From a virus, in the IMG/VR virus record IMGVR_UViG_3300042398_001385, positions 89,315 to 153,314 of that record: a DNA stretch of 64,000 nucleotides. One strand, given 5' to 3'. The notes under the pieces are model-generated. The model was not told the origin of the DNA. It ran no database searches and worked only from the letters and a program-made list of their open reading frames with translations. The position numbers were made by a program, and so were the translations under genes. Of this stretch, positions 42,002-55,733 are shown one piece after another (position 1 is the first letter of the stretch; each line of letters starts with the position of its first letter).

Positions 42002-42074
42002 TAGTCCCTGAGGGATTCGAACCCCCGACATTTTGGATGTAAACCAAACGCTCTACCAACTGAGCTAAGAGACT
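42002..42074 (-). tRNA. tRNA-Val(TAC)
   Basis: Loop TTTACAT. Confidence 0.9.
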
Positions 42075-42079
42075 AAATG

Positions 42080-42156
42080 TGGTTGACATAGAAGGATTCG
42101 AACCTTCGGCCTTTGACGTATCAGATCAACGCTCTAACCAACTGAGCTATATGTCA
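42080..42156 (-). tRNA. tRNA-Ile(GAT)
   Basis: Loop CTGATAC; CCA encoded. Confidence 0.9.
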
Positions 42157-42162
42157 ATGTTG

Positions 42163-42248
42163 CGGAAAGAATTGGAATCGAACCAAATACCAATTAAGGT
42201 ACGCTTCGCTTAGCAGGCGAGCCCCGTCACCATCTGAGATTACTTTCC
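42163..42248 (-). tRNA. tRNA-Ser(GCT)
   Basis: Loop CTGCTAA; long variable arm; G73. Confidence 0.88.
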
Positions 42249-42377
42249 TTTTTTTAATATTCTCTTTATTCTTTTGAGAATTTTTTTACCAGTTGTGAAA
42301 TTAATCACATCAATTCTTAGGTTTTCCCTACTTGAAGCAAAGCTTCCACTAATTACTACTTTTTCTTTTTTATTCAT
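42240..42377 (-). CDS. 45-aa basic peptide inside the tRNA operon (MNKKEKVVISG...KRILKKGK)
   Basis: Open frame filling the Cys-Ser spacer. Confidence 0.4.
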   Translation of the reverse strand: MNKKEKVVISGSFASSRENLRIDVINFTTGKKILKRIKRILKKGK

Positions 42378-42393
42378 AGGCACAATTTATTTG

Positions 42394-42464
42394 AGATCGC
42401 GACTGGAATTGAACCAGTATAGCCGGTTTTGCAGACCGTTTCCTAACCACTCGGACACGCGATC
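42394..42464 (-). tRNA. tRNA-Cys(GCA)
   Basis: Loop CTGCAAA; U73. Confidence 0.9.
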
Positions 42465-42475
42465 TTGTTTTTTAG

Positions 42476-42548
42476 AGGTTCCACCTGGATTCGAACCAGG
42501 ATCAGATCATCCGTAGTGATCCATTCTAATCCGTTGAACTATAGAACC
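42476..42548 (-). tRNA. tRNA-Arg(ACG)
   Basis: Loop CTACGGA. Confidence 0.88.
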
Positions 42549-42554
42549 TTTTTG

Positions 42555-42627
42555 CACGCCCTGTAGGAATCGAACCTACAACCTTTGGTTTTGGAGACCA
42601 ACGCTCTACCAATTGAGCTAAAGACGC
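42555..42627 (-). tRNA. tRNA-Trp(CCA)
   Basis: Loop CTCCAAA; G73. Confidence 0.9.
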
Positions 42628-42631
42628 ATTT

Positions 42632-42766
42632 AAGGAAAGATGAAGATGGTTGCGTGGACATCATCTTTTACGATTGGCTTTACTTAGGTGTATATCTCCC
42701 AACTCCGATGATCCCAGCCGATATACACTCTCATGCTATTGGAATCATCCTTCCCCAATCAACCTT
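42632..42766 (-). ncRNA. Unidentified structured RNA within tRNA operon 1
   Basis: Stems GATTGG/CCAATC, GTGTATATC/GATATACAC, AAGATG/CATCTT; closing AAGG/CCTT. Confidence 0.5.
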
Positions 42767-42768
42767 TG

Positions 42769-42842
42769 TGATCCCGCCGGGACTCGAACCCGGGACTCCC
42801 TCATTAAAAGTGAGGTGCTCTAGCCAACTGAGCTACGAGATC
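42769..42842 (-). tRNA. tRNA-Lys(TTT)
   Basis: Loop CTTTTAA. Confidence 0.92.
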
Positions 42843-42912
42843 ATTTTACTAAACCTATTTTTGTCTCACTAAACAAATGATGTTTAGTAATACAATTTCT
42901 TGTTTAGTATTG

Positions 42913-42985
42913 TGGTACCGGCCGGAATCGAACCGGCGACACCTAGATTTTCAGTCTAGTGCTCTACCGACTGAGCTACGGTACC
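42913..42985 (-). tRNA. tRNA-Phe(GAA)
   Basis: Loop CTGAAAA. Confidence 0.92.
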
Positions 42986-43014
42986 TTGGTTTTCCAGTAT
43001 GTCAAAGAACAAAT

Positions 43015-43044
43015 AAAAAAGGCTTCGAATAATCGAAGCCTTTT
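43015..43044 (-). terminator. Attenuator terminator of tRNA operon 1
   Basis: AAAAGGCTTCGA-TTAT-TCGAAGCCTTTTTT between leader and first tRNA. Confidence 0.88.
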
Positions 43045-43072
43045 CCAAAATATCTAAATATGATTTTCTGTA

Positions 43073-43180
43073 TTAGCTTCGATCGGGTTCTTTCCCCTTA
43101 GCCCAAAACGCCACCGTTTGATAGCAGCCATTAATCTGACTGTTCATGCGAATGATGTTATGTTTACTACAGTTTTTCAT
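43073..43180 (-). CDS. Leader peptide 1 (MKNCSKHNIIRMNSQINGCYQTVAFWAKGKEPDRS)
   Basis: 35-codon ORF just after the promoter; its 3' end ATCGAAGCT is complementary to the terminator 5' arm. Confidence 0.85.
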   Translation of the reverse strand: MKNCSKHNIIRMNSQINGCYQTVAFWAKGKEPDRS

Positions 43181-43192
43181 TGTTTTCTTTAT

Positions 43193-43257
43193 TATATATC
43201 TCTATTCCGATATTGTTTCACAAAATTAGAATAATTATTCCAGATAAAAAAATGATT
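43193..43257 (-). promoter_or_regulatory. Tandem promoters of tRNA operon 1 (AATCATTTTTT...TAATTTTG and GAAAC-N18-TATA)
   Basis: Both motifs recur with fixed spacing elsewhere in the window. Confidence 0.65.
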
Positions 43258-43268
43258 TTTGATATTTT

Positions 43269-43646
43269 TTAATATTCCTCTTCGATTATTTCCATTTCTT
43301 GGATTAATCCGACAGCTTCTTCACCTTCTACTTCATCCCATGAATAATCCACATTAGTAGATTCGTAAGCATTAAAGAAAGAATCTGAATTTCTTTCTAA
43401 TTGTTTTTTCATAAACGATACTATTTCATCTTCTGAATATTGACCGTTTACCATTTCTAAAGCTTCATTGTAATCAGAAATTCCTTCCTGACTTACTCCA
43501 TTCATCACATTTAAGAAAGATCCTAAAGCAAAAATAGCTGCTTCTCTTTGATCTTTTCCAATACCAACTGCTTTAAAATTTACCTGTGCATCAGGATTCT
43601 CGTGAGCTACACTCATAGTAACTCTGCTCATTTTGTTTAATTCCAT
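43269..43646 (-). CDS. Acidic hypothetical protein, probably early
   Basis: ORF; AATCTTTTTT...TACATTTA motif upstream. Confidence 0.65.
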   Translation of the reverse strand: MELNKMSRVTMSVAHENPDAQVNFKAVGIGKDQREAAIFALGSFLNVMNGVSQEGISDYNEALEMVNGQYSEDEIVSFMKKQLERNSDSFFNAYESTNVDYSWDEVEGEEAVGLIQEMEIIEEEY

Positions 43647-43715
43647 TGTAAAAGTTTTTTTAATTAGAATGTAAATGTAGGAATTAAATTACAGGGGAAA
43701 AAAAGATTTTATTAA

Positions 43716-44234
43716 TTAAATTAAAAATTTAATAATTTTATCCTTAATTCCTGACTGTTTTATCCCCTCATTATAAGGTTTGGTAGTCATTACAAAGTTT
43801 TCTAGTTTAGAAAGATTCATATCATCTACTGCCACCCAATGTGTTACCTCTGGATGGTTTTTAAGCCATTCTTTAATCTCTGTAAAACGAATAGCTTCGT
43901 AAAGATTTTTCCATTTGAAAAGTCCAAAACCATTCTCGTCGAAATCTTTCATATTAGGTGTAAGATCAATTGGGGGTTTAATTCCACGGGTAACATACAT
44001 CTTTTTCATTTGTTCAAGATTACCCCAGTTTTTCCAATCGGAAGAAATAACAATCTCGCATCCTGTTTCTTCGATAATTTGATTTAGAACTTTAACAGCT
44101 TTAGAATCAAAGCTATCCATTCGAATATCCAAAGGGGTTTCTGGGTTACTATCGTATCCCTTCTTTTTGAATCGTCCTCCCCATTGTGAGGAAAGACAGA
44201 TTACTCCATCATGATCTAAAAATAAAACTTTCAT
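43716..44234 (-). CDS. HAD-superfamily phosphatase (Swiss-army-knife RNA-repair HAD type); start corrected to 44234
   Basis: FLDHDGV, ISSDW, EIKEWL, VAVDD motifs. Confidence 0.78.
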   Translation of the reverse strand: MKVLFLDHDGVICLSSQWGGRFKKKGYDSNPETPLDIRMDSFDSKAVKVLNQIIEETGCEIVISSDWKNWGNLEQMKKMYVTRGIKPPIDLTPNMKDFDENGFGLFKWKNLYEAIRFTEIKEWLKNHPEVTHWVAVDDMNLSKLENFVMTTKPYNEGIKQSGIKDKIIKFLI

Positions 44235-44235
44235 G

Positions 44236-44309
44236 TGGTCCCTCACGGGCTCGAACCGTGGACCTACTGATTATGAGTCAGTTGCTCTAACCTGCTGAGC
44301 TAAGGGACC
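44236..44309 (-). tRNA. tRNA-Ile2(CAT), lysidine type
   Basis: Loop CTCATAA; GGTCCCT acceptor; near-identical to 49153-49226. Confidence 0.8.
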
Positions 44310-44315
44310 TTTTTG

Positions 44316-44395
44316 TACCTTCGGAGAGACTCGAACTCTCACGCTTTCGCACTAGATCCTAAGTCTAGCGTGTCTACCAATTCCACCACGAAGGC
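44316..44395 (-). tRNA. tRNA-Leu(TAG)
   Basis: Loop CTTAGGA; variable arm. Confidence 0.92.
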
Positions 44396-44401
44396 ATTTA
44401 G

Positions 44402-44474
<73 letters not shown>

Positions 44475-44480
44475 ATATTG

Positions 44481-44554
44481 CGGTCCTAGCGGGACTCGAA
44501 CCCGCGATCTCCGCCGTGACAGGGCGGCGTCCACTCCAACTGGACTGTAGGACC
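44481..44554 (-). tRNA. tRNA-Asp(GTC)
   Basis: Loop CTGTCAC; G73. Confidence 0.92.
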
Positions 44555-44640
44555 AATTTGTTACTTATTCTCCTACCCTTTTATTTCGTAACCAACCTGC
44601 TTATCTTTAAATACGAGTTTCTCAAGGGTACAGGTTGTAG

Positions 44641-44712
44641 TAGTCGGTACGGGATTCGAACCCGTGTGACAAGGATGAAAACCTTGTATCCTGACCCCTA
44701 GATGAACCGACC
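44641..44712 (-). tRNA. tRNA-Glu(TTC)
   Basis: Loop TTTTCAT. Confidence 0.92.
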
Positions 44713-44834
44713 ATAAAAAAGGAATAAGGCAGGACCTACGCTCTGTCTTGCATTCCATCTCAAGAGCTGCCTAATACCAGTGGGTTAGTGGTTACCTTAT
44801 TCCTAATTTCAATATTTCAAAGAGCGTATAAAAC

Positions 44835-44863
44835 AAAAAAACCTCTGAGGTTATCAGAGGTTT
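44835..44863 (-). terminator. Attenuator terminator of tRNA operon 2
   Basis: AAACCTCTGA-TAACC-TCAGAGGTTTTTTT. Confidence 0.88.
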
Positions 44864-44884
44864 AAATTATATCGTTATATTAAT

Positions 44885-44974
44885 TTAATTCCTCTGACAC
44901 TTAAATCTATCCTCTAGAAGTGAATCTTCTTTACGAAGAGTAAAATCTGTTGCGATATTTAAAAAGTGTTTCAT
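44885..44974 (-). CDS. Leader peptide 2 (MKHFLNIATDFTLRKEDSLLEDRFKCQRN)
   Basis: 29-codon ORF; its 3' end TCAGAGG is complementary to the terminator 5' arm CCTCTGA. Confidence 0.8.
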   Translation of the reverse strand: MKHFLNIATDFTLRKEDSLLEDRFKCQRN

Positions 44975-44999
44975 TGAAAGTTTTGTTCCTTTTTTATTA

Positions 45000-45026
45000 T
45001 ATACTCCAAAAGTACAGAAAAGTTTC
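45000..45026 (-). promoter_or_regulatory. GAAAC-N18-TATA promoter of tRNA operon 2
   Basis: Recurrent motif. Confidence 0.65.
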
Positions 45027-45062
45027 CTATTTAAAAAACGATTTCCTGAATTTTTTTATTTT

Positions 45063-45602
45063 TTATCCTCCTACTCCTATAGCAGCATAGGTATCAGCTA
45101 TTTTTTTGATCCCGTCGAATAATCTTTTTTTCTGTCCTTCCCATCTAGAATCACCCGTATTAATAGCTTTAACTAATACTGGAGGAAGAGCATTAGTAAT
45201 GTTTTCCATCGTGATATCATATATTTTATTTTGTGAAGGGAACAATTTAATTTTTTTGTCTTTAGGATCAGGAGCTAAATATATGTCTATATTTTTTTCT
45301 GTCCCTCCTGCAGTTGTTTTTAATCTCACTGCAATACCGTTTCCTGTAGATTTTGGTGCTTCCATTTGACTAGCAATAGATGCTGATTCAACTAATATAG
45401 CTGGACTCCCCTTAATAGGAAAATAAAGAGGATTAAGCTTTCCAGCAGAGTCTTTAACTTCACTAACAAATAGTTTGCCGAGTAAATCTTTTTGTTGACT
45501 TATATAAGTTTCCAATTTCTTTTTAAACTCCTCTGGTGAAGCAGCCTCGTTTACATTAAGATTCTCGGATAGGAATAAATCGAATGTTAGGATATTTTTC
45601 AT
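45063..45602 (-). CDS. Hypothetical protein with shared N-terminal motif
   Basis: MKNILTFDLFLSENLNVNE; start corrected. Confidence 0.7.
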   Translation of the reverse strand: MKNILTFDLFLSENLNVNEAASPEEFKKKLETYISQQKDLLGKLFVSEVKDSAGKLNPLYFPIKGSPAILVESASIASQMEAPKSTGNGIAVRLKTTAGGTEKNIDIYLAPDPKDKKIKLFPSQNKIYDITMENITNALPPVLVKAINTGDSRWEGQKKRLFDGIKKIADTYAAIGVGG

Positions 45603-45613
45603 TTTAATTTTTT

Positions 45614-45892
45614 TTATAAATTCCAAGCTGGGTTAGCAACTATTAGAATGCCATTTTCTACTCTAGGAATAGGTTTAGTTGAATAAACATCATCATATTC
45701 TATTTGGTCTGGGTAGAATTTTTGTCCTTGGAACATGATGTAGTTTTCTTCATCTTTACCTCTGTGGCTCCATCCTTGTCCTCTCATAGAATCGTGAGCT
45801 GCATCATCAACTGTTGGTCTGCCAAAGAGAGCATCCCAGAATCCCTCGTTTACTTTTTCAGAGAATGATTCAAATTCAAATATATGTTTCAT
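45614..45892 (-). CDS. Hypothetical protein with shared N-terminal motif
   Basis: MKHIFEFESFSEKVNE; start corrected. Confidence 0.7.
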   Translation of the reverse strand: MKHIFEFESFSEKVNEGFWDALFGRPTVDDAAHDSMRGQGWSHRGKDEENYIMFQGQKFYPDQIEYDDVYSTKPIPRVENGILIVANPAWNL

Positions 45893-45905
45893 TTTGTTTT
45901 TTATT

Positions 45906-46262
45906 TTAAAGCATATTAGATAAAATGTGATAAAGACTATCGCATTCATAATCCATATCGCTTAATTCTAAATTTCTTCCGTTGTACATTATAGTTGATT
46001 CATTAGTATCAACAGTAACAGATTTTCCAATAATCCAAGCTACTATTACACCAGGTTTAATCTCTCTGACGTTTTCAACAAAGGATTTATCAGGAAATCC
46101 TGATGGGTCTTTATATCCAATAGCTCTATAAATGCTGTCCAGTGATGCTCGATCTTCTTTTTTTTCGTATCCAATAAATCTTTTTCCAGCACTTACTGCT
46201 TTTTGAAGCAGAGAAGGTTTTTTAAACTGATTAAAATCCTCGAATATTTTTAGGTGCTTCAT
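45906..46262 (-). CDS. Hypothetical protein with shared N-terminal motif
   Basis: MKHLKIFEDF; GATATATA at 46276-46283. Confidence 0.7.
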   Translation of the reverse strand: MKHLKIFEDFNQFKKPSLLQKAVSAGKRFIGYEKKEDRASLDSIYRAIGYKDPSGFPDKSFVENVREIKPGVIVAWIIGKSVTVDTNESTIMYNGRNLELSDMDYECDSLYHILSNML

Positions 46263-46282
46263 TTATTTTTTTATTTATATAT

Positions 46283-46702
46283 CTATAGTATTCCTTGAGA
46301 TCTTAGAAATTGGTAGATAGAATCAGAATTTTCCTCTGCCCACGTTATAGCTATTTCCTCTATATCTACACCTTTATATGTTAAATCTGTTCCGTGTATT
46401 TCTAGAGATAGGTGCATAGATTCGTGCATAATCAATAAAACGTCCTTATATCCATTACCTAACCGAGTAGCATTTAAAAATAAAAAGAGCTTGTTGTGAT
46501 CATCCGGATAAACATTACATAATCCTGCTATATAAGCATTAGTTGGATTATCGTAACAGTCTTTCTTATAAAGACCATGTAGTTCTTCTACACCAAAAAA
46601 ATTAAATATATCTTCGGACTTTTTCCCTATTATTAGAGTATATTCGGGATATTGCTTTGTAATTATTCCTGATATATCGAAATATGATAGTTTTTTAATC
46701 AT
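46283..46702 (-). CDS. HExxH metallopeptidase-like protein
   Basis: IMHESMH followed by EE. Confidence 0.55.
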   Translation of the reverse strand: MIKKLSYFDISGIITKQYPEYTLIIGKKSEDIFNFFGVEELHGLYKKDCYDNPTNAYIAGLCNVYPDDHNKLFLFLNATRLGNGYKDVLLIMHESMHLSLEIHGTDLTYKGVDIEEIAITWAEENSDSIYQFLRSQGIL

Positions 46703-46712
46703 ATTATTCTAA

Positions 46713-48326
46713 TTATAATTCAAGCATGTCATAAACGTCCTTATATCCGTACTTTTTAGCCCCTCTATTCATTGCTATTAGATATGATCCAATGTTTAAA
46801 AGATCAGGAAATACTGGACTGTCTACTAATCTATCAGCTATCTTACCGGCAGCTTCTTCCCATTCTGGGCTTTCTTTCTTTTTAATAATAATATCCTGTA
46901 AAATTTCTAGTTCTTTACGGTTATCCTGGAGGAACTTTCCTATCCATGAAGTTTTAAACGCTTGCTTTATGTCGAACAGTAGGTACTTATTGAAATAGTA
47001 ATACTCACCTATGTATTCATTGCTCCTTTTAGCCATAACTTCTTTTTGTTCTGGAGTTCCGTAACTGTATCGTTCAGGTCTTGTGTATTCAGGGTGAGAC
47101 TCAAAATCTCTATCTAACTCAGATTCTAATTTATTCGGATCCCATGAATCCATACTTAACGCGTGTTCATCCGAATTATTCCAAATGAAACCTGCAGTCT
47201 CATCGAACTGTTTCATTGAAAATTTAGGAGTAGCTATGATCTTGCAAACCATCGTCATGTATCGTAAGTAGTTGCGCACAACTTCTTTGTCGAAAGGATC
47301 TTCTGTATGATCATTTGATAAATATTTCACACAAGCTTTCAAGTAATCTTTGCTGAATCCTCTATGAGCTTGGTACTCCTGTTCTTCTTTCTTGATGTCC
47401 AAGTTTTTGTACTGAGATCTTTTAATCTTCCCTAGACTCATAAAATCTTCCCAGTTCGTTTGTCCCTTCTCAAGATTGTACCATTTAGAACCCCAGTGTA
47501 GTCCACTTTTTCTGATGTCTTCCCTGTCTTGTAAATCTCTCATCTCACTGTCAAGATTATCATCGGTTGAGTAGTGAGAGCCCCCACTAAACGTAGTGTA
47601 GCCCATAGCTTCTATCGCATTGTTGGCATCTTGCAGCTCGTAATCGACAATATCTCCTTTTATCTTCAAGAAATAAATTTGGTTTCTGTTCTCAGCTGTT
47701 TTAGACACAAACTCCCTAACTTCTTCCTCTGCTTCAGGTAAGTAAAGAACTACTGTACCGTCAGACACTACCAAGCTCTTGTCATAGTAAGTGTCTATAG
47801 CAAAGAGACTGGCAGGTTTTCCGTTAGTCTTGATCATAGATTCTCCGGGCATCAAGTAGATGTACTTGTTACCTGTCCAGTTTCCACCTGAGTGAGAAGA
47901 AACTACGTGGTTCAACGTAAAGTGTTTTGTCCATCTGGTGGAATGAGCATCTATCATCCATTTTCTAAAAGTTTCAAAGTCCTTGTAGTGAGGTTCTTCC
48001 TTTATCCATGTATTTTCAGGGTCGTTGATGTCATCATTGTACTTCTTCTTGAGGTACTTCTCGAAAGAGTCATTGAAGCCTACGCTCTTTAGAGCTTTTC
48101 CTGTGTGAAGTATCATATCTTTACCACGAAGTGTGGGAAGCTCATCTGAGGATCTAATAAAAACTAAGTTCTTCCAATCAATAGCTACTATACCATCTTC
48201 CTTAAAATCCAGTTTGTCCACAGGTTCTCCAACTTTAGGTAATTCACTAATATTATTAATTATTTTAGAAGCTTTTGATAGGTATTCAAAAACAAACTCT
48301 TCGAATAATTTTATGTACTTTTTCAT
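46713..48326 (-). CDS. Hypothetical protein with shared N-terminal motif
   Basis: MKKYIKLFEEFVFE; GATATATA at 48333-48340. Confidence 0.75.
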   Translation of the reverse strand: MKKYIKLFEEFVFEYLSKASKIINNISELPKVGEPVDKLDFKEDGIVAIDWKNLVFIRSSDELPTLRGKDMILHTGKALKSVGFNDSFEKYLKKKYNDDINDPENTWIKEEPHYKDFETFRKWMIDAHSTRWTKHFTLNHVVSSHSGGNWTGNKYIYLMPGESMIKTNGKPASLFAIDTYYDKSLVVSDGTVVLYLPEAEEEVREFVSKTAENRNQIYFLKIKGDIVDYELQDANNAIEAMGYTTFSGGSHYSTDDNLDSEMRDLQDREDIRKSGLHWGSKWYNLEKGQTNWEDFMSLGKIKRSQYKNLDIKKEEQEYQAHRGFSKDYLKACVKYLSNDHTEDPFDKEVVRNYLRYMTMVCKIIATPKFSMKQFDETAGFIWNNSDEHALSMDSWDPNKLESELDRDFESHPEYTRPERYSYGTPEQKEVMAKRSNEYIGEYYYFNKYLLFDIKQAFKTSWIGKFLQDNRKELEILQDIIIKKKESPEWEEAAGKIADRLVDSPVFPDLLNIGSYLIAMNRGAKKYGYKDVYDMLEL

Positions 48327-48364
48327 ATACGTTATATATCTCGTTTATTTAGATATATAGTAGT

Positions 48365-48937
48365 ATGAAGTATATTAAACTATTTGAGGGATTTGATACA
48401 AATAATAATCCCACATCGATAACATTAGAGATACTTCCTGGATTCTACAATAGAATGAAAGAATCTAATGGAACTGTAACAGATGGAAGTTATGGATATC
48501 CTGATCCTAAAAATATACAGTTGTTCGATGGGAGTACTGATTTTAAAGAGAATTATAATCTTTGTTACGTAGCTAGATTAAATTCCAAATCTGAATATAA
48601 CTACGGAGGATCTGTATCTATTTGGATTAGTTATAGAAGAGACATTGCAGAGATTTCAATGTACGAGTCTATATTTGACTTTGATACTAATAGAAAATTA
48701 ATGGATTATGCTTCAGGTTTACCTAACACATCCCCAATTTATAAGGGATTATGGAAGGATACAAATCAGGATAACATAGAATATAACAGGAGATTAATGC
48801 CAAAGGATACACTATCAAGAGTTAGAAGAGAAGAATGGAACTTCTTTAATCCTACTGGATATTGCAAATTTGAAGATGGCGTAGAACCAGGTAAAACCGA
48901 TCACCGAGGATACTTCAGAATTAAAGAGGTTAAGTAA
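48365..48937 (+). CDS. Hypothetical protein with shared N-terminal motif
   Basis: MKYIKLFEGF; GATATATA at 48352-48359. Confidence 0.75.
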   Translation: MKYIKLFEGFDTNNNPTSITLEILPGFYNRMKESNGTVTDGSYGYPDPKNIQLFDGSTDFKENYNLCYVARLNSKSEYNYGGSVSIWISYRRDIAEISMYESIFDFDTNRKLMDYASGLPNTSPIYKGLWKDTNQDNIEYNRRLMPKDTLSRVRREEWNFFNPTGYCKFEDGVEPGKTDHRGYFRIKEVK

Positions 48938-48951
48938 AAAAATCTAAAAAG

Positions 48952-49054
48952 TACAAGAGGTTGGACTTGAACCAACATGAACTTTCGTTCTCGGGCATGA
49001 CACCCTAGCGTCTATCCATCGGATCATAAATGAACTCGCTTCCGCCACTCTTAT
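48952..49054 (-). ncRNA. Atypical tRNA-like RNA (Leu-type body, D-loop insertion, non-canonical anticodon loop TGTCATG)
   Basis: Acceptor ATAAGAG/CTCTTGT-A; T-arm GTTGG-TTCAAGT-CCAAC; variable arm GAAC-GAAA-GTTC. Confidence 0.65.
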
Positions 49055-49059
49055 ATTTG

Positions 49060-49143
49060 TACCCGGAGAGGGACTTGAACCCTCACGACCAAATGGCCAA
49101 CAGATTTTAAGTCTGTCTTGTCTACCTATTCCAACATCCGGGC
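49060..49143 (-). tRNA. tRNA-Leu(TAA)
   Basis: Loop CTTAAAA. Confidence 0.92.
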
Positions 49144-49152
49144 AGACTTTTG

Positions 49153-49226
49153 TGGTCCCTCACGGGCTCGAACCGTGGACCTACTGATTATGAGTCAGTT
49201 GCTCTAACCTACTGAGCTAAGGGACC
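49153..49226 (-). tRNA. tRNA-Ile2(CAT), lysidine type
   Basis: Loop CTCATAA; differs by 1 nt from 44236-44309. Confidence 0.8.
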
Positions 49227-49230
49227 TAAG

Positions 49231-49304
49231 TAGAGACGACGAGAGTCGAACTCGTGACCGCATGCGTATAAGGCATGTGCTCTAACCAATTGAGCTACGC
49301 CTCT
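49231..49304 (-). tRNA. tRNA-Ile(TAT)
   Basis: Anticodon arm CATGC-CTTATAC-GCATG; A73. Confidence 0.85.
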
Positions 49305-49311
49305 ATGGCTG

Positions 49312-49384
49312 TCGGGATACCAGGACTCGAACCTGGGGCCTCCTGGTCCCAAACCAGGCGATCTACCAACTGATCTACATCCCG
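49312..49384 (-). tRNA. tRNA-Pro(TGG)
   Basis: Loop TTTGGGA; CGGGATG acceptor. Confidence 0.92.
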
Positions 49385-49551
49385 AAATTGTATGTCTTTA
49401 AGTATCACCAGAACATACAAACTGTGCCAACCAACGATTTGGAGAATAAGTGTGCATAACATTAAAGAATACCAAGGTATCCTACCTGTCTACGGTGTAG
49501 AGGCCTATTCCATCTTCGATCCATGCCCAGCGCTAGGCAGAGGGATTTGTG

Positions 49552-49625
49552 TGATCCGAGCAGGATTCGAACCTGCGACCTACTGCTTAGAAGGCAGTTG
49601 CTCTATCCAGCTGAGCTATCGGACC
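49552..49625 (-). tRNA. tRNA-Arg(TCT)
   Basis: Loop CTTCTAA. Confidence 0.92.
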
Positions 49626-49628
49626 AAA

Positions 49629-49717
49629 TGGCGGAGAGGGCGAGATTCGAACTCGCGGTAGCTTTCACTACGTCGGTTTTCAAGACCGGTGCATTAAACC
49701 AACTCTGCCACCTCTCC
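49629..49717 (-). tRNA. tRNA-Ser(TGA)
   Basis: Loop CTTGAAA; long variable arm; CCA encoded. Confidence 0.92.
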
Positions 49718-49742
49718 AATTCATCATTATTTCAAAGACCAT

Positions 49743-49777
49743 AAAAAAACCGGGACTTTTAAAGGTCCCGGTTTTTT
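49743..49777 (-). terminator. Attenuator terminator of tRNA operon 3
   Basis: AAAAAACCGGGAC-CTTTAAAA-GTCCCGGTTTTTTT. Confidence 0.9.
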
Positions 49778-49798
49778 AGTTTATAGTTATAGTTAAAA

Positions 49799-49873
49799 CT
49801 AACACAGGACCTTTAGAGATCGTCTTATCGACGGTCTTAATATTATAGGTAATATGTTAAGTGTTTTGTTCAT
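49799..49873 (-). CDS. Leader peptide 3 (MNKTLNILPIILRPSIRRSLKVLC)
   Basis: 24-codon ORF; TAAAGGTCC near its end is complementary to GGACCTTTA in the terminator. Confidence 0.85.
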   Translation of the reverse strand: MNKTLNILPIILRPSIRRSLKVLC

Positions 49874-49881
49874 TTAAGTAT

Positions 49882-49946
49882 TATATATCGTTCCTTTTGT
49901 TTTGTTTCACAAATATAGATCTTTTATATTGATAAAAAAAATGATT
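49882..49946 (-). promoter_or_regulatory. Tandem promoters of tRNA operon 3 (AATCATTTTTT...TATATTTG and GAAAC-N18-TATA)
   Basis: Same layout as upstream of leader 1. Confidence 0.65.
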
Positions 49947-49959
49947 ATGTGGATTAATT

Positions 49960-50451
49960 TTAAAAATTAATTTGTTTTTTAATCTTTTCAATGATATAAT
50001 TTGAAAGATCTGTTTTATCTGAATAATCTAATTTATGTTTGCTAATAAACATGCTTATTTTATTCTTTATATCTCTTTTTATATCATTAGTTAATGTATC
50101 AATCTCATTAGAAAGACTATTATAAAGAGAGGCTCTTTTATAATCTCTAATAGTATCAGGATCGAGGCCATTATAATATTTTTCGATATCTGAATTATCC
50201 ATTTTACCAGCATTTATAGCCATAGTTATAATCTCAGTAAAAAAATCTCCATTTAGTTTTCCTTCTTTAACCATAGATCCAATAACAGAAATAAAGTGGT
50301 AAAGATCATCCTTATCTCCTTTATCGATTACACCTTTTGCAAGTGCTAAAATCCCTGAAGGAGTCATTGACTCAATCATTTTAGGTGTAAGTCCAGCAAG
50401 TTTTTGTGAATATGGAGTGCTATACTCTTCGAATAAATTTATATGCTTCAT
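49960..50451 (-). CDS. Hypothetical protein with shared N-terminal motif
   Basis: MKHINLFEEY. Confidence 0.7.
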   Translation of the reverse strand: MKHINLFEEYSTPYSQKLAGLTPKMIESMTPSGILALAKGVIDKGDKDDLYHFISVIGSMVKEGKLNGDFFTEIITMAINAGKMDNSDIEKYYNGLDPDTIRDYKRASLYNSLSNEIDTLTNDIKRDIKNKISMFISKHKLDYSDKTDLSNYIIEKIKKQINF

Positions 50452-50492
50452 TATATTTATATTATTTATCTATATCTATATATCTATATATT

Positions 50493-51422
50493 TCAATTAA
50501 TTCTTTTTTTACCTGCTATAGAATCCCATATGTTTCTACTTTTTGTAGCTATGGCTTTTCCCGTTGGTGCTAATCTATCCTGTACTGTTTTAAGAGCGTC
50601 TTGTGTGTCTTTCTTTAATCTAGCGCCAAACACATTTCCTTTTCTTATCCCCTTATCGATCATTTGTGTCATTTTTTCCATTCCATCATCAATAGTTTTG
50701 TTAATAGGAACTTTAAGATTGTCTAATGTATTTTGACACACTTTATAAAAGTCTTCTATATTTTGTCCTATATTAATTGATTTTACACCAACCTCTTTTG
50801 CTGTACCATAAACACAAGAACTTAAAAATTCAGGTATTGTTTTAAATGATGAAGTCGATGATTTATAAGATCCTACAGTTAATACTGATACAGCCTCTGA
50901 AGCTTTTGGCGAAGATTCTGCTAATTTATAAAGATCTTTAAGAACCATTTTAAATAATCCGGATGAATCTTCCTTCATACTATTAAAGGTCTCTTCTCCT
51001 TTATCAGTGTAATATTTATTTATTCTGCTAAAAGTGTATATAACGCTTAATCCTGCTGTGATTTCTCCTTCTTTAACATAAGAAAAAATAGACGAAGCTA
51101 GAGTCATTATTCCGTCTGCAACTGCTTCAGAAACAACATATATCCCGTCAGGCGTAAAAACTAGGGTCTTATCTTTTTTTTCTGCTATTTTTAAAAGCGT
51201 AGCTCCTATCTTCTTATTACTTTCATTAATTGAATCAGCATAAGCTTTCATTCCGCTTCCTACACACAAGAAATTATATTCCCTCCCGCTTATAGTTGTA
51301 GTTTTTACATCTTTTAATGTTCTATACAGAAGTTTATTATCTATATCAAACAGTTTTGATTTACTGTCTGTAATTTCGCTTTCAAATAAAACGAAATCAT
51401 TAAAGTCTAAAATCTTATTCAT
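50493..51422 (-). CDS. Hypothetical protein with shared N-terminal motif
   Basis: MNKILDFNDFVLFE. Confidence 0.7.
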   Translation of the reverse strand: MNKILDFNDFVLFESEITDSKSKLFDIDNKLLYRTLKDVKTTTISGREYNFLCVGSGMKAYADSINESNKKIGATLLKIAEKKDKTLVFTPDGIYVVSEAVADGIMTLASSIFSYVKEGEITAGLSVIYTFSRINKYYTDKGEETFNSMKEDSSGLFKMVLKDLYKLAESSPKASEAVSVLTVGSYKSSTSSFKTIPEFLSSCVYGTAKEVGVKSINIGQNIEDFYKVCQNTLDNLKVPINKTIDDGMEKMTQMIDKGIRKGNVFGARLKKDTQDALKTVQDRLAPTGKAIATKSRNIWDSIAGKKRIN

Positions 51423-51431
51423 TGGTATTTT

Positions 51432-51722
51432 TTAAGAAACACAAAATACTATTTTGTGAAAATCAGGGAGATACATTCTTTTAAATTTACCTAGATATCC
51501 AGATATGTCCTCGGCGTTTTCTTCGTCCTCCATATCAGAAACAACATAAAAAGTTGATGAATCTACAAAATCTAATCCTTTTTTACTTACGAAAAATAAA
51601 TCGTCTGACTCATCTTCAGATTCTTCTTCATCTTCGCTGCAATTCTCATCCTCTAGATATTCTGATATCTGTGGTTCCTCGTATTTAAACTCGTCGTATC
51701 CTGAATATATTTTTATACTCAT
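51432..51722 (-). CDS. Acidic hypothetical protein
   Basis: ORF coupled to the upstream gene. Confidence 0.6.
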   Translation of the reverse strand: MSIKIYSGYDEFKYEEPQISEYLEDENCSEDEEESEDESDDLFFVSKKGLDFVDSSTFYVVSDMEDEENAEDISGYLGKFKRMYLPDFHKIVFCVS

Positions 51723-52141
51723 TATCCCTCAATTAAAACCTTCTTTAGTTCATAAGCACCTTCAGATCCAGGTACCTCGTCATAATAACCAACTATAGAA
51801 TATTCTCTTCCATCAGAGCTTGAATCTGGTATCATTTCTATGGAGCTAACCATATTTCCTCCAACATATTCAGGATCTACTGAATGACCTATAGCCATTG
51901 TTGTTTCCTCTCCGTTAGCGTTAGTAAAGTTTACTATATAATCTCCCTCCTCATCATCTTGAGTTGGTACAAATTTAGTAGTTTCAGTTTCGAAGTTAGC
52001 AGGATCCATGTCCATTTGCTCTCCGCCCATATCCATGTCCATTTGCTCTCCGCCCATATCCATGTCCATTTGCTCTCCGCCCATATCCATATTTTTAACA
52101 GGTCTACCGACGAAACTTTCGTATATTTTAAGGTGCTTCAT
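51722..52141 (-). CDS. Acidic protein with shared N-terminal motif and three MDMGGEQMD repeats
   Basis: MKHLKIYESF; 27-bp tandem repeat at about 52005-52090. Confidence 0.7.
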   Translation of the reverse strand: MKHLKIYESFVGRPVKNMDMGGEQMDMDMGGEQMDMDMGGEQMDMDPANFETETTKFVPTQDDEEGDYIVNFTNANGEETTMAIGHSVDPEYVGGNMVSSIEMIPDSSSDGREYSIVGYYDEVPGSEGAYELKKVLIEG

Positions 52142-52161
52142 TTTTTTATATTATATATCTC

Positions 52162-52308
52162 TTATCTTCCTTGTGACTTATAAGGTTTTTTATAATGCTT
52201 AGAATTCTTACTAACACTAGATTTACATTTAGAATGTATACCTGGTCTTCTTTTTCTTGCACTTTTTATGTGATTTCTAGATGATTCTGAGGATTTAGCC
52301 TTTGCCAT
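52162..52308 (-). CDS. 48-aa highly basic peptide (MAKAKSSESS...RPGIHSK...YKSQGR), absent from the ORF track
   Basis: ATG overlaps the upstream stop codon; K/R/S-rich. Confidence 0.7.
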   Translation of the reverse strand: MAKAKSSESSRNHIKSARKRRPGIHSKCKSSVSKNSKHYKKPYKSQGR

Positions 52309-52490
52309 TATTTAGATTTTATTTTGTCTTTAGTTCCTAATGTAGATTCAAATATTACTCTTTGAATAAGATCATAGAATTTCTTTTTTCTTATAGGATC
52401 GTCTGATATAGAACAGTTAGCAACAAAAATTTTGATGTCTTTTTTTGTTTTATCTGATAGTATATCTAGTATTTTAATATCTTCTTCCAT
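52308..52490 (-). CDS. Hypothetical protein
   Basis: ORF track. Confidence 0.55.
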   Translation of the reverse strand: MEEDIKILDILSDKTKKDIKIFVANCSISDDPIRKKKFYDLIQRVIFESTLGTKDKIKSK

Positions 52491-52494
52491 ATTT

Positions 52495-52752
52495 TCAATT
52501 TCTCATATTTCCTATGTAACCTTTTTGGTTAAACATATTTTGGTTAACCCTAAGAGTTTTTCCTCTTTCGGCGGATCTTAATAATAATGTATGCTCTTCA
52601 ACTTTTTCTACTATATAAGGAACTCCTAAATATGTAACTTTATCCCCCACTTTAAGATTTAGGAGAGGATAAGGATCACCATATTTTTTTATTGGCTCTT
52701 CGCCTGGTGAATCTATAACAGTATAGTTTTCGAAAGTCTTTATGTTTTTCAT
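52495..52752 (-). CDS. Small SH3-like protein with shared N-terminal motif
   Basis: MKNIKTFENY; LKVGDKV. Confidence 0.65.
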   Translation of the reverse strand: MKNIKTFENYTVIDSPGEEPIKKYGDPYPLLNLKVGDKVTYLGVPYIVEKVEEHTLLLRSAERGKTLRVNQNMFNQKGYIGNMRN

Positions 52753-52785
52753 ATTAGTATTTATCTATTTTCTACATAAAAACAC

Positions 52786-52812
52786 AAAAAAAATCCCTAT
52801 TGCTAGGGATTT
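52786..52812 (-). terminator. Intrinsic terminator after the Ro60 gene
   Basis: AAATCCCTA/TAGGGATTT stem plus U-tract. Confidence 0.8.
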
Positions 52813-52834
52813 AATAAGAAATTTAAGGAATATC

Positions 52835-54466
52835 TTATTTTTTGGACTCTATAGAATCCCAAGTATCTATAATAGCATTGGCAAATATTGGTTCTTTACC
52901 AGTCCATCCTGCTAATATTGCACCTCTATAAAGATTTTCAGGAAGTACAGAATTGTTGTAACCTGCAACTTGTATACAGAAGACATTAACCTTAGGATTA
53001 ACAGTTCTTCTATATTCTTGTACCATTGCTAGAACGTCGACGTTTACTGATCCCTTATCTCCGTGTCCATAAGGAGAAACCCCAACTGTGTCTCCGTGTC
53101 CATATAAACCTCCATGTCCTGCCTGCATATCTGAGTATATGAAAACAGTATCATAATGTGTCTTATTTTTTATAGCATCGTCCCAGAATATCCATATTCC
53201 ATTTTCTGTTCCACCTCCTTGTTCTCTACCTCTTTTAGATGTCTCTGCTAATTGAGTGAGTATACCATTTCTTTTAGAAACTCCTTTTAGTGATAATTCA
53301 TCTCCAAATACTCCTACAATACCTTCGTCGGACTGTAAAGCAGTTGTTAATGAAGAAAGGTTAGCTATTTCTGCTACTGTTACAGTTCCATATTCGCTAT
53401 TAAAAGATCTCCATGCTGATCCTGAGTTGTCAGATAGACAAGCAGTTTTACCTTTTAATTTAGGCATATTAGATACTGAAATATCTAAGCACTCCTCTAA
53501 AGTATCCAGTACAAGCTGTTTGTGGTGTATATCAGAACCTTGAATTGCTTTGAAAGCAGACCAATATCTGAATGGAAATTGTTTTCCGTTTTCAACCCCA
53601 GATTTTAGTTGAGCTAATATTCTTGCTGTGATTGTACGATCATCTACTTCTGTAAAAATACCTCTAAGGTTTCTCAACAACGCCATATGAGGAATAAGAA
53701 TGGTATCTGTTATTTCCTTCCATGTTTTTCCTTCAGATCTTAGAGTTTCCCAAGTTTTTTCGCTCTCTTTAACTTTTAAAGTACCAGTAGACATTAACTC
53801 ATTTATGTCCTCTCCTTTTGCGTGAGATATACGTACAAGATCTATTAGTCTTTTTCCTTTGTACTTATTTAATTGGTATCTGCTAAATTCTCCAAGTCTT
53901 TCTGCCCAAGTTCTTTTAACCATAGACGAAAGACCTTTTTTATCTCCATTCTTATACATGTAGTATTCGAATTGATTAGTCAAATCATCTGGTCGTAAAG
54001 AAATAGCTTTACCTATACTCTTCATGTACCCCGGATTACTTTCATTAAACTCGACTCTTGAAGGGTGTTGTGAAGCTTTTATAAAGATCACAGCTGGATT
54101 AAGTCTCATAAAGAAATTAGTTCTTAGATCTAGGGCTAAATCCAATGTTCCTTTAAAATCGTAACTTAAAGCAGATTCTATAGCATTTTCAAAAATCTCA
54201 GTAGCAGTTACATCTGATTGATACATTGATGGAAATATAGAATATTTTGACAATGTCTGTAGATTGCTAGGAGCCTTTAATCCATCTCTATAATACTGAG
54301 GCTCTCCAAATATAGACGAAGCCGCTACGATTCTTAAAGTGTCTAGAGGATTTATCTCATAGGATGTCCCTCCCATAAAATTTTCCACTGCAAAAGCACC
54401 GTAAATTGAATTTTGTGCAATTTGCATTGCCATTTTTTTGTCTGCGTAATCACTTAACTTTGACAT
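52835..54466 (-). CDS. rsr: Ro60/TROVE-domain RNA-binding protein with vWA domain
   Basis: YQLNKYK, TWETLRS, MALLRNLR, QFPFRYWSA; DNSGS MIDAS motif; YSDMQ. Confidence 0.92.
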   Translation of the reverse strand: MSKLSDYADKKMAMQIAQNSIYGAFAVENFMGGTSYEINPLDTLRIVAASSIFGEPQYYRDGLKAPSNLQTLSKYSIFPSMYQSDVTATEIFENAIESALSYDFKGTLDLALDLRTNFFMRLNPAVIFIKASQHPSRVEFNESNPGYMKSIGKAISLRPDDLTNQFEYYMYKNGDKKGLSSMVKRTWAERLGEFSRYQLNKYKGKRLIDLVRISHAKGEDINELMSTGTLKVKESEKTWETLRSEGKTWKEITDTILIPHMALLRNLRGIFTEVDDRTITARILAQLKSGVENGKQFPFRYWSAFKAIQGSDIHHKQLVLDTLEECLDISVSNMPKLKGKTACLSDNSGSAWRSFNSEYGTVTVAEIANLSSLTTALQSDEGIVGVFGDELSLKGVSKRNGILTQLAETSKRGREQGGGTENGIWIFWDDAIKNKTHYDTVFIYSDMQAGHGGLYGHGDTVGVSPYGHGDKGSVNVDVLAMVQEYRRTVNPKVNVFCIQVAGYNNSVLPENLYRGAILAGWTGKEPIFANAIIDTWDSIESKK

Positions 54467-54492
54467 ATATTTGTTTTTAAATTTTACTAAAT

Positions 54493-54527
54493 AAAAAAAG
54501 GGTTTAGTCGCTAGCGTCTAAACCCCT
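54493..54527 (-). terminator. Intrinsic terminator between the ncRNA cluster and the Ro60 gene
   Basis: GGGTTTAG/CTAAACCC stem plus U-tract. Confidence 0.8.
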
Positions 54528-54534
54528 TAGTGTC

Positions 54535-54609
54535 GTTCTGAGAAAATCGATTTCGAGGATTTTTCGAGTCTAACAATATATGAAGTATCTCAAAATCCCG
54601 CTTCAGAAC
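54535..54609 (-). ncRNA. Candidate Y-like RNA A
   Basis: Stems GTTCTGA/TCAGAAC and GATTTTGAG/CTCGAAATC; GAAGCGG, TACTTC, TTCTC motifs. Confidence 0.7.
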
Positions 54610-54614
54610 AATTT

Positions 54615-54695
54615 TAAATCCGAGAATATTAGTGAAAGGCGTTTTTTCTTTTTTCCTAAATATTGAAGTAACCATTCACACCGCTTCGGAGTTTA
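54615..54695 (-). ncRNA. Candidate Y-like RNA B
   Basis: Stems TCCGA/TCGGA and GTGAATGG/CCTTTCAC; same motifs. Confidence 0.7.
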
Positions 54696-54702
54696 TATAA
54701 TT

Positions 54703-54933
54703 TTTTTCTTGAGAAATCTCTAAAGAGTGGTCCCTCCTTATGGGAGGTAATCATTCCCTCATTTCTAGTCTGGTGAATTAAACCGAGCTACTGATTTTTC
54801 TCTTATGTCCTTTCGTAAATAAGAGCGCCTCATCTATAGCAGTACTGAGACCTGTGTAGATTAGAACCGGAGAACTAATCTTTTTCTGCGTTTATAATTT
54901 TTGAAGTAACCCTTTAAACCGCTTCAAGAAAAA
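54703..54933 (-). ncRNA. Candidate Y-like RNA C with large multi-hairpin insert
   Basis: Stems TTTTTCTTGA/TCAAGAAAAA and TTTAAAGGG/CTCTTTAGA; same motifs. Confidence 0.7.
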
Positions 54934-54939
54934 TATGTA

Positions 54940-54986
54940 TGTTAAAGAACGTTTTATTAATATATTGCAAATTTAGATAAAGTTTC
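54940..54986 (-). promoter_or_regulatory. GAAAC-N17-TATA promoter plus boxA (GTTCTTTAACA) for the ncRNA cluster
   Basis: Matches to the recurrent promoter motif and to the boxA consensus. Confidence 0.65.
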
Positions 54987-55305
54987 AATTTAAAACCTGA
55001 TGATCCTCAAGAAATTTTTTAATTTGTTCATCATTTTTTACTCCAGAGAATCTTGCTATCTCTTTATCTCCCTCTATAAGTACACAAGTTGGAATATTTC
55101 TTATGTTGAATTTCTTTGCAGATTCTTCCGCCTCACTAACATCAGCTTTTACTATTTTTATATTTTCTGATAGTTCAATTTCTAATTTTTCTAGTGACGG
55201 CTTAATTATTTTACAAGGCCCACACCAATCAGCGGAAAAAAGAACTAAAGTTTTTTCACCACTTACAATTGCTTCATTTAACTGTTCATCGTTAATAATT
55301 TTCAT
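54985..55305 (-). CDS. trxA: Thioredoxin
   Basis: WCGPC active site; IPT cis-Pro motif. Confidence 0.93.
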   Translation of the reverse strand: MKIINDEQLNEAIVSGEKTLVLFSADWCGPCKIIKPSLEKLEIELSENIKIVKADVSEAEESAKKFNIRNIPTCVLIEGDKEIARFSGVKNDEQIKKFLEDHQVLN

Positions 55306-55350
55306 GTGATTTGATTATTTGATATGGTATATAACCATCCGAACACAAAG

Positions 55351-55373
55351 AATCCCGCCTTAAGACGGGACTT
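55351..55373. terminator. Hairpin, probable terminator
   Basis: TCCCG/CGGGA stem. Confidence 0.5.
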
Positions 55374-55382
55374 TGCTTGTTC

Positions 55383-55733
55383 TTAAATTTCTGAAGAAAT
55401 AGGACCTTCTTCCTTATTTTCTTCAATTTTTTCTTCGATTGGCTCTTCTAAAATGCCATCCTCGTCGTTTTCTTTTTTATCAGATAACTCTGGTCCCTCT
55501 TTTATTTCTGATGCGGGGGATACATTTAATTTTTTTATAAAATCCGGTGAAATTAAAAGTTCTCCAGTTTCTCTTATTTCTGGCGTTCCTGCACTGTTAA
55601 TCTCTGCAGATTTTTGTTGCTCTTGTATCATTTCCAAGAGCTTCTTCATTTTCGTTTTAGATAAACCTTTAGGCTTTGCTTTATACTTTACTGGTTTACC
55701 GTTTTTCTTTCTTACTCGACTTTTAGTAGCCAT
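55383..55733 (-). CDS. Hypothetical protein, basic N-terminus and acidic C-terminus
   Basis: ORF; GAAAC-N18-TATA at 55754-55780. Confidence 0.65.
   Translation of the reverse strand: MATKSRVRKKNGKPVKYKAKPKGLSKTKMKKLLEMIQEQQKSAEINSAGTPEIRETGELLISPDFIKKLNVSPASEIKEGPELSDKKENDEDGILEEPIEEKIEENKEEGPISSEI

Follow-up and report, generated by a model that had tools for sequence, protein, structure and literature searches.

A candidate codon-matched leader-peptide attenuator upstream of a phage tRNA operon

INTRODUCTION

Leader-peptide attenuation of amino-acid operons has been known for half a century. The trpL and hisL leaders are its paradigm, and multivalent leaders, such as thrL (Thr/Ile) and ilvL (Ile/Val/Leu), also stand before enterobacterial amino-acid operons. 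To our knowledge, the leader-peptide attenuators described so far all regulate genes for amino-acid biosynthesis, amino-acid transport, or aminoacyl-tRNA synthetases. T-box riboswitches, the other well-known class, lie upstream of aminoacyl-tRNA synthetase or amino-acid genes and bind tRNA through a specifier loop and a T-box sequence, with no translation involved. The purpose and control of the tRNA genes carried by phages are still debated. Here, we describe a short open reading frame (ORF), leader 3, that precedes a tRNA operon (operon 3) in the IMG/VR virus record IMGVR_UViG_3300042398_001385. We consider it likely, judging from the sequence, that transcription of this phage tRNA operon is controlled by leader 3 through ribosome-mediated leader-peptide attenuation that senses tRNA supply. 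The DNA analyzed, hereafter the window, is the 64-kb stretch at positions 89,315 to 153,314 of that record, whereas genome-wide counts were taken over the full 153,314-base record in six frames.

RESULTS AND DISCUSSION

Layout of operon 3 and its leader

ARAGORN called 26 tRNAs in the window, all on the minus strand and arranged in three blocks. Operon 3 (49059 to 49717, delimited by ARAGORN, Rfam, and sequence inspection; all window coordinates given for the operons and their leaders are on the minus strand) encodes, in this order, tRNA-Ser(UGA), tRNA-Arg(UCU), tRNA-Pro(UGG), tRNA-Ile(UAU), an Ile2-like tRNA with the anticodon CAU, and tRNA-Leu(UAA). The CAU tRNA starts with GGTCCCTTAGCTCAG at its 5' end and has the anticodon loop CTCATAA; it appears to resemble tRNA-Ile2 (ileX of E. 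coli). The distal CAU tRNA of operon 2 (44235 to 44309) is 1 nt away from it.

Leader 3 consists of 24 codons plus a TAG stop (MNKTLNILPIILRPSIRRSLKVLC; ATG at 49873, TAG at 49801 to 49799). An A/T-rich spacer of 21 nt separates the TAG from a predicted intrinsic terminator (49743 to 49777), which was found by a terminator scan and by folding and is composed of A6, CCGGGAC, an 8-nt loop CUUUAAAA, GUCCCGG, and U7. Directly 3' of the terminator is a boxA-like motif, GGTCTTTGAAA (49730 to 49740), that is kept in every relative, and tRNA-Ser begins 12 nt past this motif, at 49717. Since only ~25 nt lie between the U-tract and tRNA-Ser, there is no space for a second promoter between the terminator and the first tRNA. 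The upstream gene ends at 49960, well ahead of the leader 3 promoter box.

Leader 3 codons match the tRNAs of operon 3

A first-pass annotation of this DNA had claimed that codons 7 to 19 of leader 3 read ATA TTA CCT ATA ATA TTA AGA CCG TCG ATA AGA CGA TCT, that 12 of these 13 codons fall in the codon boxes of the tRNAs of the operon, and that ATA, TTA, and AGA are common in the genes of the phage. The codon string proved exact on the minus strand (49817 to 49855), and 12 of the 13 codons do belong to the boxes ATA, TTR, CCN, AGR, and TCN, CGA being the sole exception. Codon usage agrees as well: the phage encodes Ile, Leu, and Arg chiefly by ATA (52.3 per thousand), TTA (38.6), and AGA (29.8), respectively.

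Each sense codon was allotted to an operon according to the tRNA that decodes it, with U34 tRNAs taken to read a whole four-fold box. By this assignment, the operon 3 set accounts for 22.9% of codon usage across 122 long ORFs from the 153-kb record, and the sets of operons 2 and 1 make up 18.1% and ~59%, respectively. Stop-free windows of 13 codons with at least 12 operon 3 codons occur at three loci only in the six frames of the record, namely, a 650-bp tandem repeat, a site at window position 9337, and leader 3, where the run starts precisely at codon 7. The tandem repeat (~650 bp; genome C1 45300 to 45980, outside the window) carries an acidic/Leu-rich run on the plus strand and dominates the genome-wide codon-set window counts.

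Alternative folds of the leader

The end of the leader ORF had also been reported to pair over 9 bp with the terminator, and TAAAGGTCC (49815 to 49807) is indeed perfectly complementary to GGACCTTTA in the terminator. The pairing grows to 11 bp, one G-U pair included, between UAAAGGUCCUG (segment 2; 49805 to 49815, codons 20 to 23; located by fold and duplex scan) and CGGGACCUUUA in the terminator 5' arm and loop (segment 3; 49760 to 49770; located by fold and covariation), so that segment 2 is the candidate 5' strand of an antiterminator. The best duplex between the ORF and the 5' half of the terminator reaches -19.4 kcal/mol, against a mean of -7.3 and a standard deviation of 2.0 for dinucleotide-shuffled ORFs (n = 2000), none of which attains this value (0/2000). 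This duplex is located at the last bases of the ORF, with the helix ending 3 nt ahead of the TAG.

The minimum free energy (MFE) fold of the full-length leader (-38.9 kcal/mol, z = -5.6) combines a long 1:2 hairpin with the terminator. In the 1:2 hairpin, which appears in both the MFE and the centroid folds, UAACAUA and ACCU of the sensor region (segment 1; 49847 to 49859) are predicted to pair with AGGU and UGUGUUA of the ORF 3' end when the full-length leader is untranslated. Both lie around an inner hairpin, AGACCGUC-GAUAA-GACGAUCU (49817 to 49837, codons 13 to 19), which the folds present as a possible pause or spacer hairpin. When the leader is cut before the terminator 3' arm, it folds into the 2:3 antiterminator instead. 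The fold logic is that of a trp-type leader with four segments, that is, a 1:2 hairpin, a 2:3 antiterminator, and a 3:4 terminator. These stable alternative folds, together with the position of segment 2 near the stop codon, support the first-pass reading of leader 3 as a codon-matched attenuator.

The standard ribosome footprint is ~28 to 30 nt. By these dimensions, a ribosome on the leader 3 stop codon would mask segment 2, and a ribosome with codons 7 to 15 in the A site would protect the RNA to about nt 55, break segment 1, and free segment 2 (nt 59 to 69).

Codon constraint and covariation among relatives

A promoter pattern recovered 12 viral contigs with related tRNA operon blocks, several of them only partly three-operon, and a scan for the leader core recovered 20 metagenome stretches; combined, they gave 17 distinct leader 3 sequences. 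The metagenome loci were chosen by exact identity over codons 12/13 to 19 and the viral loci by their promoter. Because the search patterns required them, the conservation of codons 13 to 19 in the former and of the promoter in the latter is by construction, and the regions free of this bias are codons 2 to 12, codons 20 to 25, the spacer, and the terminator. The inner hairpin is invariant in the viral relatives, which were ascertained by promoter. A scan for the terminator-plus-boxA pattern returned the same ten contigs again and no more divergent family members.

Codons 2 to 6 vary freely across the 17 distinct relatives, and at codons 2 to 5 the operon 3 set accounts for 5 of 23 codon states, matching the background rate. 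At codons 7 to 17 and 19, all cells (204/204) are in the set, and the 16 codon states seen at codons 8 to 12 all belong to it (16/16). The states at codons 10 and 11 are ATA, TTA, TCA, TCC, TCT, and TCG, so that Ile, Leu, and Ser interchange, and third-base variation is confined to the four-fold TCN box, all of which one tRNA reads. ATT, ATC, TTT, TTC, and ACN are never seen at these two codons, though they are one step away. The bases present at each position would allow 16 codons; the set contains 7 of these, and every one of the 6 codons observed is drawn from the 7 (~9e-4). This pattern indicates that the constraint acts at the level of the tRNA rather than through the peptide or an RNA helix.

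Six distinct relative ORFs end early, at codon 20, where the stop overlaps segment 2. This stop is a TGA in one of them (L026); in the other five it arises from a 1-nt deletion that gives TCC TAA AGG TCC. All six have lost the C-terminal peptide and mostly retain the nucleotides of segment 2 (with changes in L026). A ribosome terminating at the earlier stop would still mask segment 2. In L042, the most divergent relative, segment 2 has changed from C to U, segment 3 from G to A, and segment 4 from C to U jointly, preserving both helices. The covariation score of the antiterminator is above those of all 500 shuffles and all slid controls. In the terminator, 98% of cells are paired over 20 relatives, with one compensatory pair. 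The codon-matching interpretation given at first pass is strengthened on both counts: the amino-acid changes in the relatives stay in the operon 3 set, and segment 2 covaries with both terminator arms.

Promoter and translation start

The leader 3 promoter consists of TTTGTGAAACA, a gap of 15 nt, the -10-like box TATATAAT (49887 to 49880, from sequence reading), and six bases before the ATG at 49873; its upstream box, TTGTGAAACA with a T before it, was located by pattern search at 49903 to 49912. With no mismatch allowed, the promoter pattern occurs in the window before operons 1 and 3 only; a looser regular expression applied to the whole record again found operons 1 and 3 only, and the exact form TTGTGAAACA-N15-TATATAA has two occurrences in 153 kb. 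The TTGTGAAACA box is kept in the metagenome relatives, which were recovered through another pattern. More broadly, a promoter class of the form (T)TGAAAC, 15 to 20 nt, and TATATAAT is apparently limited to the three tRNA operons and a Y-RNA-like operon (sites at 49880 to 49912, 43189 to 43223, ~44995 to 45030, and ~54960 to 55000).

The spacing of a TATAAT/C/A hexamer, exactly 6 nt, and the ATG is kept in 16/17 distinct relatives while those 6 nt differ. This constant distance from the -10 box to the ATG suggests a transcript 5' end at or adjacent to the AUG, and the leader 3 transcript is probably leaderless. The ATG itself is retained in 16/17 distinct variants, and the frame is intact through codon 19 in all 17. 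Shine-Dalgarno sequences give no signal among the phage genes (7/122, against a background of 7.7%), whose upstream regions are A-rich; because the phage genes are generally without such sequences, their absence from the leader is no argument against its translation. The best matches of the terminase (at most 39% identity) are to huge uncultured phages, Sphingomonas phage PAU, and Tenacibaculum and Flavobacterium phages, and the host may be one that initiates translation without Shine-Dalgarno sequences.

Leaders 1 and 2 and other elements of the window

The other two tRNA operons have leaders of their own. Leader 1 (35 codons; 43073 to 43180, with a terminator at 43047 to 43014) was delimited by codon count and folds. 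Its codons 1 to 30 are all in the operon 1 set and, with 3 in-frame upstream codons, form a run of 33; no frame of the genome holds a longer one, and the second longest is 23. Leader 1 covers every tRNA class of operon 1, with one to five codons per class, and even includes CGC, which is used at 0.1 per thousand. The probability of 29/29 codons in the set with all 15 classes sampled is ~1e-10, a count that includes the AGY codons. The tRNA for these codons is itself a candidate: 42163 to 42249 in operon 1 scores 38.3 bits with the Rfam tRNA-Sec model, below the cut-off of 47, and its identity as a tRNA-Ser(GCU), which would read the AGT/AGC codons of leader 1, is uncertain. The candidate has a long variable arm and no ARAGORN call and lies between tRNA-Cys and tRNA-Ile(GAU), and the ~237-nt gap that holds it also occurs in relatives.

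Leader 2 (29 codons; 44885 to 44974, with a terminator at 44863 to 44839) was recognized from its codon cluster, its family variants, and folds. The cluster of Glu, Asp, and Leu(CTN) codons is not significant in this genome alone, where 36 loci reach 6/7, and support for leader 2 comes instead from comparison within the family. In the family variants, the cluster is kept through extensive in-frame variation in length and sequence, and TTA, the preferred Leu codon, is never inside it. The indels among variants of both leaders are in frame. In leaders 1 and 2, as in leader 3, the best pairing with the terminator 5' arm is at the 3' end of the ORF (p ~0.015 and ~0.005, respectively), and in leader 2 of L026 the terminator stem has been rewritten (CCUCGG/CCGAGG) together with the end of the ORF (CCGAGUUUU...).

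A fourth noncoding RNA (ncRNA) operon, Y-RNA-like and upstream of a Ro60-like gene, has a similar promoter and a boxA-like motif and no tRNAs. Inspection of this operon for the module found neither an ORF nor a terminator; hence, the attenuator module appears specific to the tRNA operons. At the level of the whole system, the first-pass reading is thus consistent with two further tRNA operons that have their own matched leaders and with a tRNA-free ncRNA operon that lacks the module. The boxA-like motifs GGTCTTTGAAA, GCTCTTTGAAA, GTTCTTTGACA, and GTTCTTTAACA lie behind the three terminators and directly behind the fourth ncRNA promoter and are conserved in the relatives examined; their sites (49730 to 49740, 44815 to 44825, 43000 to 43010, and 54940 to 54950) follow G(G/C/T)TCTTT(G/A)A(A/C)A. 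The rrn-type boxA consensus is TGCTCTTTAACA, a site downstream of the promoter that recruits NusB/NusE.

Several other features accompany these operons. In operon 2, the boxA-like motif and tRNA-Glu are separated by an extra structured element of ~90 nt (44713 to 44812), which is closed by the stem GGAAUAAGG/CCUUAUUCC with a U-run after it (fold of -26.9 kcal/mol, z = -2.0). The element was found here and in L027 and is missing from most relatives. Immediately after the last tRNA of operon 2 comes a gene for HAD_SAK_2, an RNA-repair-associated HAD phosphatase (43716 to 44246; Pfam E = 1.3e-23). The proximal CAU tRNA of the same operon (44401 to 44474) has the hallmarks of an initiator, namely, a C1 that is mismatched to position 72 and an anticodon stem closed by three G-C pairs. 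In one relative, L004, an insert of ~700 nt (~3190 to 3860, minus strand) separates the leader 3 terminator and boxA from tRNA-Ser, and its upstream text hints at a possible mobile ORF. Around the locus itself, a DNA search against isolated phages gave matches to tRNAs only, a neighboring 163-aa protein had no relatives among viral contigs, and a search with a neighboring 537-aa protein found one close relative only.

Proposed mechanism

We infer the transcription start, translation of the ORF, termination efficiency, and regulatory response of leader 3 from these features, as follows. Transcription would begin at the AUG or right beside it, driven by a promoter class confined to the noncoding RNA operons of the phage, and a ribosome would translate the 24-codon ORF, in which codons 7 to 19 would be decoded by the six tRNA species encoded downstream. 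If decoding is fast, the ribosome would arrive at the stop codon and mask segment 2, the terminator would form, and the polymerase would halt 25 nt before tRNA-Ser. If the ribosome has to wait at codons 7 to 15, the 1:2 hairpin would be melted and segment 2 left free, so that the 11-bp 2:3 helix could form and transcription could read through into the tRNA genes. With no translation, the 1:2 and 3:4 helices would both form, and transcription would terminate. The result would be a negative feedback in which each tRNA set is made upon slow decoding of its own codons, and decoding might become slow either because ATA/TTA/AGA-rich phage messages exceed the host pool or because tRNAs are lost.

Alternative explanations

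Other explanations account for part of these observations. According to the strongest of them, which we nevertheless regard as unlikely, the hairpin is a constitutive and partly leaky terminator, or a processing or stability hairpin before a tRNA precursor, with the ORF untranslated and its codon content a by-product. Such a hairpin would fit the conservation of AGACCGTCGATAAGACGATC inside the ORF at the nucleotide level, where it forms a hairpin, and the scoring of the terminator as such on both strands. It would also fit Sphingomonas phage PAU, a distant terminase relative that has tRNAs without such a module: neither a leader nor a terminator accompanies the PAU tRNA block and Tenacibaculum phage PTm1 lacks tRNAs, so the module is not general among distant terminase relatives. 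However, the confinement of codons 8 to 12 to the operon 3 set (16/16 states) despite Ile/Leu/Ser swaps would be left unexplained, as would the restriction of third-base variation to four-fold boxes, the in-frame indels of leaders 1 and 2, the match of three leaders each to its own operon, and the unvarying proximity of segment 2 to the stop codon (about 12 nt at most).

These same features of the codons bear on a slightly less probable proposal, in which translation of the ORF does gate the terminator, but what the ORF senses is translation capacity in general, or the coupling of transcription to translation, and not the supply of particular tRNAs. The overlap of the ORF end with the antiterminator would suffice for a coupling sensor, and leader 1, with its one to five codons per tRNA class, would have a weak codon-specific sensitivity; such a sensor, however, needs neither a codon match operon by operon nor substitutions confined to the set.

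It is very improbable that the ORFs encode functional micro-peptides and that the terminator merely ends their transcripts. Conservation of the ORFs and their ATGs would be expected of micro-peptides, but six distinct relative ORFs have an earlier stop that replaces or removes the C-terminus, the changes at positions 8 to 12 are nonconservative (I/L/S), the leader 2 peptide is very variable in length and sequence, and the tRNAs would be left promoterless, given that there is no promoter space past the terminator. Least probable of all is direct, T-box-like binding of tRNA by the leader RNA with no translation, since, although the leader triplets are complementary to the anticodons of the downstream tRNAs, a search for Rfam T-boxes over 40500 to 55500 gave no hit at the permissive threshold of E <= 1, and twelve different specifier triplets in one frame, the invariant ATG, and frame-preserving indels indicate a ribosome.

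Attenuation in response to tRNA supply, the reading we prefer, has to be weighed against several observations that do not favor it. The conservation of codons 13 to 19 in the metagenome relatives reflects the search pattern, and codon 18, CGA, is invariant and yet decoded by an operon 1 tRNA. The 1:2 helix, with 94.6% of cells paired in relatives, has no double changes and a covariation score equal to that of shuffles because its columns are nearly invariant, so that covariation speaks neither for nor against it, and certain single changes weaken its pairing. The relatives are close (mean column identity, 82%), and therefore independent substitutions are few and the covariation is carried by one or two sequences. 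Further, L003 is without most operon 1 tRNAs and its leader 1 is unchanged, and in L008 operon 3 is rearranged and the leader ATG lost while CCN and TTA codons are still present. In this second locus (L008 3432 to 3686, minus strand), ATA replaces the leader 3 ATG, and the block holds a Ser-like RNA (no ARAGORN call), Arg(UCU), Ile(UAU), and Glu, which could be a single case of decay of the module. As read from the sequences of these two loci, the leaders do not follow recent changes in tRNA content.

A module in Caulobacter phage phiCbK

Caulobacter phage phiCbK (JX100813) has an analogous arrangement, with TTGACA-N17-TAGGGT and 7 nt ahead of an ATG. The ORF that follows includes CAA TTT GTG CGC CAG ATT CAG GTC GTC CGG AAT ATC, the block behind it encodes tRNAs for Phe, Val, Ile, Ile, Val, Gln, and Gln, and GGGCGGGCC in the ORF can pair with the terminator 5' arm. 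By its sequence, this ORF appears clearly codon matched and probably leaderless. Another phiCbK ORF, gp083, matches its tRNA block only partly because Ala and Thr codons are abundant in it without matching tRNAs. Depositor-annotated terminators lie ahead of three tRNA blocks at 47200 to 52700 of JX100813. The phiCbK genome paper annotates terminators and does not discuss attenuation (Gill et al. 2012; PMC3556154). Unlike leader 3, this module belongs to a siphovirus of 66% G+C that infects an alphaproteobacterium, and it serves different tRNA sets and has no sequence similarity to leader 3.

Implications

Taking the two phages together, we lean toward the view that unrelated large phages, namely, a freshwater myovirus family and phiCbK-like siphoviruses, run a codon-resolved feedback on their own tRNA supply, each operon standing behind a probably leaderless test ORF written in its own codons and being transcribed only when that ORF is decoded slowly. 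The triggers might be, for example, phage messages that go beyond the host pool or host defenses that destroy tRNAs. If this is true, these phages would gauge directly, by the speed of decoding codon by codon, whether tRNA is sufficient, and would tune its supply operon by operon, and leader-peptide attenuation would extend to tRNA genes, with a selectivity for isoacceptors rather than for amino acids. The leaders would also serve as a read-out of the tRNAs that a phage treats as limiting, which bears on codon-usage mismatch and on tRNA-targeting defense. Because the analogous module is present in phiCbK, a phage of the tractable host Caulobacter, bench testing is possible now.

Comparison with known systems

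Full-text literature searches uncovered no account of tRNA genes controlled by leader-peptide attenuation. Covariance models gave weak full-length alignments of the leader regions (49740 to 49848 and 43013 to 43077) to three Rfam leaders, namely, Thr_leader RF00506 (29.7 bits against a gathering threshold of 55; E = 0.038), Phe_leader RF01859 (26.9 against 55), and L20_leader RF00558 (26.2 against 58.7). We rejected membership in these families, as the scores are far under the gathering thresholds and the likeness comes mainly from the terminator hairpin. With T-boxes, leader 3 would share the sensing of tRNA status and a terminator/antiterminator switch, both proposed here from sequence; unlike T-boxes, it has no detectable specifier loop or T-box sequence.

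The nearest analogues of leader 3 appear to be the multivalent thrL and ilvL leaders. Like these and like trpL and hisL, it has a short ORF between a promoter and an intrinsic terminator, here upstream of tRNA genes. The ORF has clustered sensor codons of several types, enriched for those of the regulated product. The predicted antiterminator excludes the terminator, and a ribosome halted on the stop codon would mask its 5' strand. Termination would be the default because of the predicted 1:2 hairpin. Unlike the amino-acid attenuators, whose targets are biosynthesis, transport, or aminoacyl-tRNA synthetase genes, leader 3 would act on six tRNA genes, so that the output would directly replenish the molecule that is sensed. 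Its sensor codons are accordingly chosen by tRNA species (ATA and not ATT, TTA and not CTN, AGA and not CGN), and the system is phage borne, probably has a leaderless transcript, and exists in three parallel, self-matched copies. By this analogy, the mechanism class itself would be that of the classical leader-peptide attenuator, and what would be new here is tRNA genes as the targets of attenuation.

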